From: Octopus vulgaris
Lineage: Eukaryota
Direction: 5' to 3'
DNA length: 64,000 bases
NCBI GenBank assembly: GCA_951406725.2
Contig: OX597815.1
Span: 28,582,001 to 28,646,000, forward strand
Position numbers and translations under genes: made by a program. Position 1 is the stretch's first letter; each line of letters starts with the position of its first letter. Positions 22,401 to 40,400 of the stretch are shown piece by piece. The notes beneath the pieces were generated by a model that saw only the letters and a program-made list of their open reading frames with translations, searched no databases and was not told where the DNA came from.

Positions 22401-25400
22401 ATGTGTATTAAAAGAGCTTTCCAGTGAGAAACAATGCAAACACACCACTACTTGTAGAAAGCTCAAAGCAGCGACAGATTAAATCTTTAGCTTCAAGAAA
22501 ATGACTTTTGCATTTTAAACTTTATCATCTCTCTCTCTCTCTCTCTCTCTCTCTCTCTATATATATATATATATATATATATATAATTAAATTAGAGATA
22601 AAACCACTATTAGGCAAATCAAACAGTGAAAAACATAAGCCAATACATAAAATTAATTTAAAAATATAAAAGTTATTTAAATATTTTTTTATTTTTAACT
22701 TTTATATTTTTAAATTAATTTTATGTATTGGCTTATGTTTTTCACTATTTGATTTGCCTAATAGTGGTTTTATCTCTAATTTAATATAATATAATATAAT
22801 ATATTTATACTATAAAATTGGATTTAATCCTAAATCTAATTTTTCCCTGTAAGTTTAGATTTATTCCCTAATATTATTATTATATATATACATATATATA
22901 TATATATATATATATATATCTGTATACATTAAAGTTCCTTTAACAGATTAGAAATGATTTGTTTTGAAAAGTTATTATTTTCTTTAATTTTACAGGAAAG
23001 GGGCCCAAGTCGTATATCAAGCAAAACTGAGGTGTCAGAATTTGAAATGGTAATAACTTTGGACATGTTGACCATGGTTTCGGAAGCAAATATCTTCTCA
23101 AGTACACATGCGTATATATTTGTATAAGTGTAATAGATGTATGTATGTATGTATGTATGTATGTATGTATGTATGTATGTATGTTTGTGTATCTATGTAT
23201 GTGTGTCTGTATGTATGTATGTATGTATGTATGTATGTATGTATGTATGTATGTATGTTTCATGGCAGATAAAACTGTGAAATGTAACATATTAACAGGG
23301 CCATCACATTTCTTGTAAAAATATATCAAAATTTTTACAAGGGAAAGACTTATCATTATAACATTGAAAACACATTATATCTCATAGTTGCTGAAGAGGA
23401 ACTTTGCCTGTACCAATAGATTCCCCAAAATATTTAATAAATACACCATGAAATTATCCTTTAACTGTGCACCAAGTGTAAAAATGATTTTACCAAGTAG
23501 GCCCACACTCTTTTTGCCTCTTAGCTTTGTAAACTTCTGATTGATGACAAAATTTAACAGTCAAAACTGAAATTACCCCTTCTTACTGTAAAAGTAGTGT
23601 CAACAACAAGTAATCTTGAAGATAAGATTATAACGTTGTAGATATGTGGATGAATTAATTGCTGTGTGAAGACCATCTTAAACTCTTATGCAAAGAGTGT
23701 GTGTGTGCACATGTGTATGTGTGAATGTGTGTGGGTGTGAATATATGTGTGGGGGTGGGGTGCGTGTACTGTGCATGCATATGTGTATGTGTAAGTTTTA
23801 GTTTCTGTACAAGAGGAGATGTGCCCACAGTAAAATTTCAGTGTGTATATTGTAATGTTTTTTTCAGACTAAAGATTGTTGTTATTATGACTTTTGTATT
23901 TTAACCTTTATCATCTCTCTCCATATATACATATATATATATATATATATATATATATATATATATATATATATATATATATATATATATATATATATAT
24001 TATATATCTGTATACATTCATGAGTTCTTTTAACAAATTAGAAATGATTTGTTTTGAAAATTTATTATTTTAATGCAATAATGTTTCTGATTTTATTTAA
24101 TTTTACAGCGAATGGGCCCATCACCTAGATCTAGCAAACATGAGTCAACAGAATTTGAAATGGTAATTACTTTGGACATGTTGACCTCGGTTTAGGAAGC
24201 AAATATCTTCTTTAGTACACATGCATCTATATTTGTATAAGTATAATATATGTATGTATGTATGTATGTATGTATGTATGTATGTATGTATGTATGTATG
24301 TGTGTGTATGTATGTGTGTATGTATGTGTGTGTGTATGTGTGTGTGTATGTATGTGTATGTATATGTCTATCATGATAGATAAAACTGCTAAATTCAACA
24401 TGTTAACAGGGCCACCATATTTCTTGTACAAAAATATATCAGAATCTTTACAAGGGAATGATTTATCATTATAACATTGAAAACACATTATATTTCATAT
24501 TCGCTAAAGAGGAACTCTTGTTTTATTCTGTGGATTTCATAACAAGTTCACTTCTTTTTGATGTATTATATGTAATCCAATAACAGCAATACAAATTATG
24601 TATCCCTTAAAACGGTTTTTGTGCATCTATAGAGAATACTGAACTCTCTTACACAGGATCTTGATTTTAGGACTTCTGAATAAATTATGAATACCCAAAT
24701 TGTGAAGTAAGTTATGTAATAACATGAAATTAGTTATCGGATAGTAAGAATTCAAATAAAGTAGCCCGAAAAAGGGCTTTAATGCATTCCCAGAGTATAT
24801 AGAACATAGAAGGAAATACTAATAAAGTATATTATTCTATAATCGTGAAGCATGTTACATAATAACAGGCTAATCAAATTTGAGATAACAGTATAAAGTA
24901 AATAACTCTGAAAAGGGCTTTCGTGCATTCCTTGAGAATATTACCCTCAGGGGTGGTGGTGTTGATATATTCGTGAATAAGTCACTAACCGAAATAAGTT
25001 GATTTATTGTTTAGTAAAATACTATTTACTTGTTTAAAGGCTGTACTGGATAAATTGTTAAAATAACTCTAACAGTTCAAATACTAAGAAATAAGCATAC
25101 TCAATTTCCTTTTTACCAAATAATTTAGGTAAATGAATGGGTTATTTCCCTTGTTTATATATAAGGATTCCTTCCAGGGGCCCTTCTGTCAATTTTTCAA
25201 CAGTTTGAGTATGCCATGAGGTTTCTAGACATGAGTTCTCCTCACGTGTCAAGTTTCATTGAAATTGATAAAACAATGTATGAGGAGTTAGCTAACAGAT
25301 CCACAAGCACACCCAAAGAAAGAATTGCCCACATATGAGGTAGATATCTATATACATATATGTATGTATGTATGCATGTATGTATATATATATATATATA

Positions 25401-37400: not shown

Positions 37401-40400
37401 CATATGTATGTATGTACACATAAAAGCATGTATGTATGTATATTAAAAAAAAATGGAGGTAGTATTTGGATACCGACTATTTATTTAGTGTGTTGATAAA
37501 AATCTCAAAAGGACAAAAGAGCTAAATAAAAATTTCTTATGCAAATCCTGACTGCCTACCTCTCTCTCTCTTTCTCTCTCTCTATGTATATATGTATATA
37601 TATATATATATATATATATATATATATATATATATGCACACATACATATACTTACATATAATACATACGTACATATATATGATGTTCATATTAATGATGT
37701 GTAGGGACACTGTATTTCATTATGTGACCATGATATACTACAAATTATATCTAATGTTTTTATAAGTCTCTGTTCTGCTGTGTTAACTATTACATCACTC
37801 GTTAAAGTTATCCCTACAGATTTTCTATAGAAATTATAGCCACCACTAATTTTGTTTTGACATTAATAATGCGCCATTAATATTTATGCACCAGCTTCAC
37901 AAATGTTTGTTGATAATTGGTATATTGTGTAAAGTTACACTGCTGTATTTAGTAGCTGTTTAATCAATTTGTTCATGGATGATTTATAGGTTGGCTGGGT
38001 GCTGATGAAAGAGGAAAAATTCCTGAAATATTTCATGTATTCCCACTATCCGTTTTCATCTTCGATCTCAAGAAATGTTGGAACAAAATCAGGGCTGACT
38101 ATAATTTCTATAGAAAATCTGAAGAAATAAACTAAACAAGTCGTTTAAAATCCGTTTTCCATGCTGGCATGTGTTGAATGGTTTGACAGGAGCTAGCAAT
38201 CTGAAGAGCCACACCTGACTTCAATTGTTTATTTTAGCATGATTTCTATAGCTGGATGTTCTTGCTAATGCCAACCACTTTACAGAATGTAGTGAGGGCT
38301 CTTTACAAGACACCAGTGTAGGTACCTCTTTATGTGACTCCATCATGGTAGGTCTTACATGGCAGCAGCATGTGTGCTTTTTACGTGACACCAGCACAAG
38401 TGCTTTTTATGTGGCACATTTTTTTTATCAAGTTCTTTTTCATATTTTCATAGAATTTCCTTTCAGTTCGTTCCTAGAACTTCATGGCCTCATCTTCAGA
38501 ATGAAGAGACGCTGGAATGTGTTGCTACCACTTTAGAGTAATGTTACTGCCAAAATTTGAATTTTTACTGTTTGCATTATAAACTTTTGATTGATGACAA
38601 AATTTAACAGTCAAAATTGAATTACCCCTTCTTACTATAAAAGTAGTGCCAACAACACATAATCTTGAAGATAAGATTATGATGTTGTAAATATGTGGAT
38701 GAATTAATTACTGAATGAAGACCATTTTAAATTCTTATGCAAAGTGTGTGTGTGTGGGTGTGTGTGTGAGTATATGTGTATGGGAGTGTCTGTATGTACT
38801 ATGTGTGCATATGTGTATTTGTTAGTTTTAGTTTCCGTACAAGAGGAAATGTGCTCACAGTAAAAGTGCAGTGTATTTATTGTAATGTTGAGACTAAACA
38901 TTGTTACCATTATGGCTTTTGTATTTTAACCTTTATCATCTATCTATCTATATATATATATATCTGTATACATTCATGAGTTCTTCTAACAAATTAGAAA
39001 TGATTTGTTTTGAAAATTTATTATTTTAATACAATAATGTTTCTGATTTCATTTAATCTTACAGGAAATGGTCCAAACTCCTAAATCTAGCAGAATTGAG
39101 GTGACAGAATTTGAAACGGTAATTACTTTGGGCATGTTGACCTGGGTTTAGTAAGCAAATATTCTTCTTTTGTGTAATATATATTAACAAGGCCATCATA
39201 CTTCTTGTAAATTGTATCAAATCTTTTACAAGGGAAAGGCTTATTATTATATCATTTTAACCACCTGAATGGACTTAAGCAAAAGGAAATGAAGTGTTTT
39301 GCTTAAGAATACAATGCATCCCAGTCCAAGAATCGAAACCACAATCATACAATCATGAGTCCAACACCCTAACCACTGAGCAATACACTTCCACTTTCAT
39401 TTATCATGGTTGTTGTTTATCTTTGTATGATTCAGTATCTTCAGATCTGCCTTCTCCATTCCTTTCAACATTTTTGACATTGGACCTCTTCCATAGTTTC
39501 CTTCCATTTGTATCACTTGCCTTGGATTTGTTCTCCTTTCATATCTGTACTCACCAGTCAGTAACTGATAACTCATCATAGCTCTAATTTTCATGTTCAC
39601 CTTGAGGCAAACTGTCATCAGATATCAAACTCATTTTTTGCCTAGAGTATAGTTTTATTATTGTGTATGTATACATTCATGAGTTCTTTTAACACAATAA
39701 AAATGATTTGTTTTGAAAAATTATTTCAATAAAATAATGTATCTGATTTTATTTAATTTTACAGGAAAGGAGCCCATCTCCTAAATATAGCAAGTATGTG
39801 CCAACACTATTTGAAAAGGTAATTACTTTGGACATGTTGACCTCGGTTTAAGAATTAAATATCCACACAAATACACATGCATATATATATTTGTATGTGT
39901 GTATTATATGTATGTATGTATGTATGCATGCATGCATGCATGTATGTATGTATGTATGTATGTATGTATGTATGTATGTATGTATGTATGTATGTATGCA
40001 TGCATGCATGCATGCATGTATGTATGTATGTATGTATGTATGTATGTATGTATGTATGTATGTATGTATGTATGTATGTATGTATGTATGTATGTATGTA
40101 TGTATGTATGTATGTATGTATGTATGTATGTATGTCTGTATGTATGTATGTATGTATGTATGTATGTATGTATGTACGTATGTATCTTGATAGATAGAAA
40201 CTGTTAAATCTAACATAATAACAAGGTTATCATATTTCTTGTAAAAATACATCAAACTTTTTACAAGGGAAAGACTTATCATTATAACATTGAAAACACA
40301 TATTTCATATTCATTGAAGAGGAACTTTTTTTATTCTGTGGATTTCATAAGAAGTTCACTTCTTTTTTATGTATTATATGTTATTATTTTGTGGGGATTT

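Follow-up and report, generated by a model that had tools for sequence, protein, structure and literature searches.

A tandem array of five 3-kb units with short module exons in a C10orf67-family gene of Octopus vulgaris

Results

The gene and its exons

The window, that is, the whole stretch of 64,000 nucleotides of Octopus vulgaris DNA that was analysed, contains part of a gene that is the counterpart of Octopus sinensis LOC118762221 (XP_036356659.1), a member of the C10orf67/DUF4709 family. In 16 exons outside the array described below, 275 of 280 residues are identical to the O. sinensis model. The DUF4709 domain (PF15821) lies outside the window; in residues 24-106 of the O. sinensis model its score, at 27.8 bits, was marginally over the cut-off of 27, and in the counterpart of O. 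bimaculoides it stayed under the cut-off at 25.6 bits. The C-terminal coiled-coil block (query about 750-900) gave phmmer matches to DUF4709-bearing proteins with E values of 1.9e-6 to 7e-4, and several phmmer matches bear the name C10orf67. A search with the whole protein for relatives of similar length returned the O. sinensis model itself only. The literature found on the C10orf67 family consists of a weak report of NOD2 interaction and a report on knock-down in hypoxia. Literature searches on DUF4709 and on the locus and accession names yielded nothing, that on the mouse gene name nothing useful, and that on tandem exon duplication in octopus a human study only.

Within the portion of the gene covered by the window, each of the 20 in-frame exons that were measured has a length divisible by three (Table 1). 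They range from 30 to 84 nt, a single one being 36 nt or less. The entire linker is made of duplicated, frame-preserving micro-exons, and the array is only its youngest layer. Exon candidates at 17518, 42572 and 63789, the latter two longer, were unsupported by protein models and therefore discarded. Another 54-nt candidate within the array units (26296 and its copies) was likewise rejected, being located in a high-copy repeat and contained in no protein model.

Table 1. Exons, array units and duplications of the C10orf67-family gene in the window
Feature	Position	Strand	Remarks
Upstream exons, same gene	4045..18174	+	five, frame-preserving: 4045, 6758, 9584, 12892, 18127
Exon, original donor apparently lost	20320..20376	+	AT where other modules have GT; absent from O. 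sinensis model; 11/18 in O. bimaculoides
Older intron duplication	20494..21282	+	92% similar to 40329-41110
Older paralogous module exon	22996..23049	+	54 nt; 18/18 in O. sinensis model
(TA)43 tract	23923..24007	.	left edge of young array; shorter (TA)n tract at every unit junction
Unit 1	24009..27018	+	3010 bp; acceptor, module exon, intron
Unit 1 exon	24109..24162	+	54 nt, phase 0; retains Ser-Pro found in older modules
Unit 2	27019..29969	+	2951 bp; carries 26-bp deletion
Unit 2 exon	27119..27172	+	54 nt; peptide 18/18 identical to first array module of O. sinensis model
Unit 3	29970..32997	+	3028 bp
Unit 3 exon	30070..30124	+	out of frame in the assembly (55 nt); stop at codon 7
Unit 4	32998..35978	+	2981 bp
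Unit 4 exon	33098..33151	+	54 nt; peptide 18/18 identical to second array module of O. sinensis model
Unit 5	35979..38964	+	2986 bp; nearest relative unit 4 (0.73%)
Unit 5 exon	36079..36132	+	54 nt
Older paralogous module exon, right edge of array	39065..39118	+	54 nt; 18/18 in O. sinensis model
Older paralogous module exon	39765..39818	+	54 nt; 18/18 in O. sinensis model
Downstream exons, toward C-terminal coiled coil	41568..63999	+	eight: 41568, 44339, 50615, 54254, 55817, 56977, 60894, 63949 (last cut by window end)

Five distinct units

Positions 24009-38964 are occupied by five units in head-to-tail orientation, and the self-similarity of the array extends to 39173. BLAST self-alignments covered 3-12 kb at 96%, well above chance. 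A previous, sequence-only reading of this DNA had described five tandem units of about 3 kb differing by SNPs, microsatellite length and a short deletion, and all of this was confirmed. The units measure 2951-3028 bp and differ pairwise by 0.73-1.76% (about 2600 columns, microsatellites excluded), with a transition/transversion ratio of 55/23 (2.4). Pure TATG runs comprise 13, 6, 20, 6 and 10 repeats in units 1 to 5, and the 26 bp missing from unit 2 after 29409 are flanked by 10-bp direct repeats. One 54-nt exon with intact splice sites had also been assigned to every unit. This applies to the splice sites, as acceptor and donor show no difference across the five exons, and to four exons, which are in frame as assembled, but not to the 55-nt exon of unit 3 with its stop. 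The 100 nt upstream of the exon are identical in units 2 to 5.

The extra base in unit 3 probably goes back to an assembly error or else to a private allele, since 54-nt forms were present in contigs from all three DNA runs considered: each run has an exon-covering contig without one base at 30081, 30082 or 30083. One contig of run X2 matches the private base of unit 3 at 30077, yet, 4 bp away, it has no extra base; unit 3 therefore exists in an in-frame form in another individual. The extra base resembles two alleles of a single site, both written out.

Copies in independent DNA runs

Assembled contigs from three independent DNA runs served as evidence; runs X14-X24, with small shares, were excluded. 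The runs listed as sharing words with the window comprised no identified RNA run, and X14, presumably RNA, had no coverage of the exon; neither result bears on expression. For an assembly over-expansion, a depth of about one fifth of the flanks had been anticipated. Instead, the collapsed array contigs showed about 3-4.5 times the single-copy depth in all three runs. Medians of the depth ratios were 3.2-3.6 and maxima 4.2-4.4, similar across the runs and too rough to tell four copies from five. The sequence-only reading had considered copy number probably polymorphic; at this resolution the runs showed no such difference. Contig depth is a rough measure rather than a copy number, and the single-copy figures for X1 and X2 are from other loci in the 'best supported' list. 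In run X4, an array contig had a depth of 169.1 compared to 37.5 (4.5x) for the gene's own single-copy paralog at the same coordinates; the paralog contig carries 20 substitutions and one gap, which equals the count for window positions 23512-23689.

Many copy-specific variants of the window recur in contigs of the three runs. The runs differ from each other at 29066, 29157, 29236-29237, 29513, 30077 and 30106, and every allele involved occurs in units of the window. The best share of window words in a run was 0.57. No listed contig showed the deletion of unit 2; as contigs drop rare variants, this does not imply its absence. The five-unit array is real and its copies are distinct, as the sequence-only reading had held. 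One run bears a second organism label and contains both copy-specific alleles and multi-copy depth, so the array probably predates the split between the two labels. The amplification had been called recent, a term to be used with caution in view of that split.

A separate module set in O. bimaculoides

In O. bimaculoides, the same gene is divided between two models, XP_052821827.1 and XP_052834497-9. It specifies four 20-aa modules and one 18-aa module. Modules 1-4 match one another at 11-15 of 15 residues versus 5-11 of 15 for the modules of the window, and the whole linker shows 54-55% identity between the two species. From isoforms X2 and X3, which are RefSeq models and not reads, a different 20-aa module is missing in each case. 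It is likely that this second octopus species expanded the same part of the protein independently, which is a new observation.

Rates of change in older module exons and their introns

In the older cassettes, divergence of the module exons was about 2.5 times that of their own introns, also an observation made here. Among three older cassettes, 25 changes were counted in 54 exon columns versus 53 in 292 intron columns (ratio 2.55, p 0.0002). Codon positions 1-2 account for 21 of the 25 exon changes, corresponding to 0.58 per site versus 0.18 in the introns (p 3e-5), while third positions (0.22) are at the intron rate (p 0.57). Comparing positions 1-2 with position 3 gave p values of 0.046, 0.072 and 0.012 under three cassette choices, a signal based on 54-nt exons. 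Non-synonymous divergence exceeded synonymous divergence (pN > pS) in 14 of 15 non-independent pairs including an older cassette, and in only two of six pairs of the four young in-frame copies.

Discussion

Origin of the array

Unequal crossing-over, as proposed before, likely produced the array and fits the relations among units. Adjacent units are sisters (units 4 and 5 share nine of 18 informative sites, units 2 and 3 share five), incompatibility was seen for 41 of 153 site pairs, and on its left side the young array starts at a (TA)n tract within an older paralogous cassette. Older cassettes, each consisting of an exon preceded at about 100 nt by a (TA)n tract, may have misaligned and recombined near the tract. 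Duplications of single units would have followed, units 2/3 first and units 4/5 last, accompanied by some sequence exchange among the copies. Replication template switching, loop-out at (TA)n tracts or rolling-circle copying could have generated the units without meiotic crossing-over. (TA)n tracts at the left edge and at all junctions are consistent with such processes, and for the exons of oyster bindin a model of loop-out at microsatellites has been put forward (PMC5712786). Nevertheless, these routes appear quite improbable: the stepwise unit differences (0.7% to 1.8%) and the sister relation of adjacent units speak against rolling-circle copying in one step, and the incompatible sites indicate exchange between copies. 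Over-expansion of the array in the assembly, or a merger of two haplotypes, is largely refuted already and hardly credible. The appearance of the extra base in unit 3 and the incomplete word share would agree with it, and none of the listed contigs spans a whole unit. It is contradicted by the multi-copy depth in three runs, by copy-specific alleles repeated across independent runs, by the transition/transversion ratio and by the O. sinensis model, which stems from a separate assembly and includes modules of the Asp as well as of the Glu type.

From array to protein

In the AlphaFold model, linker residues 337-752 have pLDDT values below 50 almost throughout and are enclosed by long helices; the model is derived from 12 sequences only, and the low pLDDT may stem from a shallow alignment. 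The array modules are thus predicted to reside in a disordered stretch linking coiled coils, which every in-frame copy would extend by one module of 18 residues. Because the linker exons all preserve the frame, modules could be gained, skipped or lost without harm to the flanking coiled coils. The linker, rich in Ser/Thr and in charged residues, may act as a spacer of adjustable length, and mRNAs probably contain a variable subset of modules rather than five every time. The notion that every unit adds 18 residues is weakened by the frameshift of unit 3 as assembled and by the O. sinensis model, with two array modules versus five units in the window. These two facts, together with the apparently lost donor of the exon at 20320, could also mean that most copies are silent or skipped, that the protein contains about two modules at any copy number and that the extra units are decaying pseudo-exons; the two modules of the model would then be set against about four copies in runs of two organism labels. 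We regard this as unlikely. Splice sites and the upstream 100 nt of units 2 to 5 are identical, no copy being marked as weaker, an in-frame unit 3 occurs in run X2, and isoform X1 of O. bimaculoides has five consecutive modules. Moreover, near-identical exons are difficult to place with short RNA reads. Taken together, a genuine exon array, arisen by crossing-over in a C10orf67-family gene and lengthening a disordered linker in steps of 18 residues, is in our opinion the best explanation and quite probable.

Whether selection favoured amino-acid change in the older modules is about an even question. A neutral accordion, in which a disordered linker merely tolerates duplications and chance or local mutability accounts for the excess in the exons, is somewhat short of even probability and concerns the selection part only. 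The small numbers, the young copies, with synonymous divergence equal to or above non-synonymous divergence in four of six pairs, and the low linker identity between the two species would suit it. However, neutrality predicts an exon rate not above the intron rate, whereas positions 1-2 exceed the introns in the figures given above and third positions match them, and pN > pS prevails in the pairs with an older cassette, non-independent as they are.

Comparison with known systems

The array is a known kind of repeat, an exon-containing tandem unit. The very small exons of schistosome micro-exon genes (MEGs) do not exceed 36 nt. The in-window part of the octopus gene has symmetric exons throughout (20 of 20) but just one of 20 within this limit, and membership in the MEGs was rejected. 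MEGs are described as confined to flatworms, secreted or gland-associated, with mostly very small exons (PMC4350168). A series of small symmetric exons and raised non-synonymous change are common to both, as are skipping isoforms a few residues apart, in octopus according to the RefSeq models of O. bimaculoides, but the octopus exons, at 30-84 nt, form a linker in a coiled-coil protein that is widely conserved. The kringle IV-2 repeat of LPA (KIV-2; PMC11201333) has units of about 5.6 kb with two exons for a folded kringle, in 2 to 36 copies in people. As in this coding VNTR, near-identical head-to-tail units of exon plus intron, several kb long, are found here; they show paralogous sequence variants and have older, related units at their flanks, and the frame is kept in four of five copies as assembled and in the fifth in run X2. 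In contrast, the octopus unit has a single 54-nt exon, whose peptide is predicted to be disordered, and KIV-2 alone is established to vary between individuals.

Pacific oyster bindin, a sperm acrosomal protein, contains F-lectin domain repeats, the number of which is set by splicing, and is under positive selection (PMC5712786). Both are molluscan genes with tandem exon-encoded repeats (one to five in bindin) and a microsatellite directly upstream of the repeat exon. The octopus modules, on the other hand, are 18-aa peptides predicted to be disordered instead of folded F-lectin domains, and no Pfam match to F-type lectin was obtained in the O. sinensis model. Tandemly duplicated exons occur in about 10% of animal genes (figure cited by Ivanov and Pervouchine 2022, PMC9013439), and the array belongs to the same class of events. 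While that literature is centred on mutually exclusive choice, the octopus models hold consecutive copies: two in O. sinensis and five in O. bimaculoides, according to models and not reads, and a Dscam-type mutually exclusive cluster was rejected.

Implications

The locus offers a clear natural case of a protein that grows by the addition of single exons, and one gene contains modules at every stage, old, young and dying. If the amino-acid excess holds, it would offer a first approach to the function of the C10orf67 family. Vertebrate C10orf67 is expressed in testis. A far-reaching interpretation, which we consider unlikely, is that octopuses have made a variability cassette resembling MEGs or bindin out of the linker in this coiled-coil protein, which is conserved but uncharacterised. 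Repeated lineage-specific amplification, skipping of single modules and positive selection would diversify a phosphorylatable spacer that serves, perhaps in sperm, as a ruler or recognition surface specific to the species; a literature search on C10orf67 with sperm, at the level of titles, found no support for the testis idea. Present annotation undercounts or splits the locus, with two modules in one model and the gene in two parts in the other species, and one copy probably contains an error of one base.

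Five tandem units with diverged copies

Self-BLAST of the window revealed a ladder of 96% alignments with a period of about 3 kb, reaching from 23975-23985 to 39173. Unit boundaries were set 100 nt upstream of each exon, resulting in the five units U1 to U5. Over about 2600 columns with microsatellites masked, unit pairs differ by 1.19-1.76%, except for U4/U5 with 0.73%. Substitutions comprise 55 transitions and 23 transversions, as expected from real mutation. Microsatellites are unequal in length, and 26 bp are deleted from U2 after 29409, between 10-bp direct repeats. From SNPs, microsatellite lengths and a deletion near 29400, the sequence-only reading had taken the units for distinct copies, which is borne out by these data. 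It had also assigned one 54-nt exon with intact splice sites to each unit. Acceptor and donor are indeed identical in all five exons, but only four are 54 nt long; the U3 exon (30070-30124) has 55 nt as assembled and reaches a stop at codon 7.

Array units and copies of an interspersed repeat
Feature	Coordinates	Remark
U1	24009-27018	cut 100 nt before exon
U2	ends 29969	cut 100 nt before exon
U3	ends 32997	cut 100 nt before exon
U4	ends 35978	cut 100 nt before exon
U5	ends 38964	cut 100 nt before exon
440-bp repeat	587-1036, 5846-6292, 9840-10245, 21750-22178, 56107-56533	both orientations

Depth and alleles in sequencing runs

The array stretch was detected, whole or in part, in 20 of 24 listed runs (best share 0.57), all hits being contigs, and four runs were aligned over 28710-30212. 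In DNA run X4, which carries a second organism label, two contigs cover identical coordinates, one with a depth of 169.1 and the other, of 706 bp, with a depth of 37.5, a ratio of 4.5. The 706-bp contig shows 20 substitutions and one gap, a count equal to that of the window's single-copy paralog 23512-23689, and its listed differences match this paralog. The median depth of the array relative to single contigs was 3.2, 3.3 and 3.6 in X1, X2 and X4 (maxima 4.2, 4.4 and 4.3); these ratios are rough, since contig depth is not copy number and variant sites depress the depth of a collapsed contig, and the baselines of X1 and X2 were taken from other loci. The ratios do exclude a single copy and largely refute an over-expanded assembly, the objection raised beforehand; the array is real. 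X1 is possibly the source sample and was left out of the independent count. Differences between runs at 29066, 29157, 29236-29237, 29513, 30077 and 30106 involve alleles that separate window units, and the U3-type allele at 29352-29354 is present in X4; the listed substitution 29368 has no counterpart in the window. Multi-copy depth and alleles common to the second organism label suggest that the array predates the split from it. Contigs covering the exon (30025-30153) are shallower than neighbouring array contigs (81 versus 169-185 in X4, 58 versus 85-90 in X2), which fits greater among-copy exon variation in other individuals too.

In the exon contigs of all three DNA runs one base is missing at 30081-30083, contigs being unable to prove absence of a variant. 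The X1 contig has the U2 form and the X4 contig a third in-frame form absent from the window. The X2 contig shows no difference at the U3 private base 30077, yet lacks 30081; being only 4 bp apart, both sites lie on the same 31-base words. The 55-nt exon looks as if both alleles of a single site had been entered in it. The extra base probably reflects an assembly error; a private or rare allele is the less likely alternative.

The gene and its probable expansions in other lineages

With the 84-nt exon at 60894 as query, one protein was found among five candidates, the 923-aa product of O. sinensis LOC118762221 (XP_036356659.1). When 22 exon candidates were compared, 16 non-array exons were collinear with this model (275 of 280 residues matching), which places the window in an octopus closely related to O. 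sinensis. Two modules of the array type are present in the model, the first equal to the U2/U5 peptide and the second to the U4 peptide. Exon 20320-20376 is missing from the model and kept in O. bimaculoides; it has AT where other modules have the GT donor, so that the donor appears lost in the window and the exon looks like a module on its way out. With a GT located three bases upstream as donor, a 54-nt exon at 20320 could nevertheless be formed.

DUF4709 scores barely above the Pfam cut-off, and the 21 phmmer matches include proteins named C10orf67 of snails, a brachiopod and a fish. C10orf67 is reported to interact weakly with NOD2, seen by BRET only (PMC5094585), and its knock-down to lower hypoxic apoptosis (bioRxiv 10.1101/743955). 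AlphaFold, run with a 12-sequence alignment, predicted long helices at 20-151, 186-324 and 756-872 and a pLDDT below 50 across nearly all of 337-752, the region holding the modules. Two conserved motifs are 737 residues apart versus 254-291 in relatives (both found in four of eight). Ser/Thr account for 23% of the linker, Lys/Arg for 21% and Asp/Glu for 18%. Identity of the linker between O. sinensis and O. bimaculoides is 54-55% versus 79-81% for the coils.

In the O. bimaculoides counterpart, the corresponding place is occupied by five modules, four of them 20 aa and one 18 aa in length. Over their last 15 residues, modules 1-4 match at 11-15 positions among themselves and at 5-11 with window modules. 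Since they are closer to each other, this protein-level comparison points to an independent expansion. Isoform models X2 and X3 of O. bimaculoides (385 versus 405 aa) each lack a different module; RefSeq alternative models are usually based on transcript alignments.

Annotation of this gene is poor. It is split over two models in O. bimaculoides (P0006 and P0002) and Argonauta hians (P0008 and P0007, whose locus tags are adjacent). In O. vulgaris the match (P0009) is a 67-aa fragment. Further repeats were noted. In O. bimaculoides P0006/P0026 (residues about 348-455), the linker's N-terminal half holds near-identical Lys/Ser/Asp-rich ones of about 16 aa, more uniform than the corresponding O. 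sinensis stretch and probably a further lineage-specific exon expansion. Gigantopelta aegis P0013 has about seven tandem repeats of 8 aa (about 385-440) directly ahead of its C-terminal coil, in the part of the linker that corresponds to the one holding the octopus modules. Exons 50615-50671 and 54254-54304 are a related pair with the same nine terminal residues, an older duplication common to O. bimaculoides.

Exons change faster than introns

Three older cassettes with shared intron homology were compared. Changes were found in 25 of 54 columns in the exon and 53 of 292 in the intron, a ratio of 2.55 (p 0.0002), and in 27 of 140 columns of deep intron alone (p 0.0015). In the young units, 6 of 55 exon columns vary versus 73 of 2522 in introns (p 0.006), the exon count possibly being inflated by one assembly error; none of 44 intron windows reached 6. 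Such an excess could arise by gene conversion confined to introns, which would raise third codon positions too. Of the exon changes in older cassettes, 21 affect positions 1-2, with 0.58 per site, and the remaining four affect position 3, where the rate of 0.22 equals that of introns (p 0.57). Selection at the amino-acid level would therefore be the simpler reading. Against selection, positions 1-2 versus 3 gave p values of 0.046, 0.072 and 0.012 for three cassette choices, and pN exceeded pS in only two of six pairs among the four young in-frame copies.

Origin and known systems

Among 18 informative sites, nine group U4 with U5 and five U2 with U3, and 41 of 153 site pairs are incompatible. 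Immediately left of the (TA)43 tract (23923-24007), identity to unit ends is down to about 87-90%, and on the right side it declines at exon 39065, one of the older set. Every unit junction has a (TA)n tract of its own, shorter than that at the left edge. Exon and flanks are common to the older cassettes 22996, 39065 and 39765, and self-BLAST matched 20494-21282 to 40329-41110 at 92%. Older cassettes may have misaligned near the TA tract, and single-unit duplications would have come next. This mechanism is ordinary. LPA KIV-2 works alike, exon plus intron forming a VNTR-type unit (PMC11201333), and tandem exon duplication is widespread (PMC9013439). The array resembles schistosome MEGs (PMC4350168) through its symmetric exons, its rapid change and the skipping seen in O. 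bimaculoides models, and oyster bindin (PMC5712786) through repeat exons preceded by a microsatellite, through splicing and possibly through selection; it is a member of neither. The literature covered yielded no paper when searched under the names of the domain, the locus and the accessions; the array was not found described before and belongs to a known kind of repeat. The probable parallel expansion and the exon-over-intron excess raise its interest.

Elsewhere in the window, self-BLAST showed decayed intronic fragments with self-matches (14330-15900 and 58468-58783; 2071-2722), presumably LINE-like reverse transcriptase. The five copies of the 440-bp interspersed repeat are 71-89% identical.
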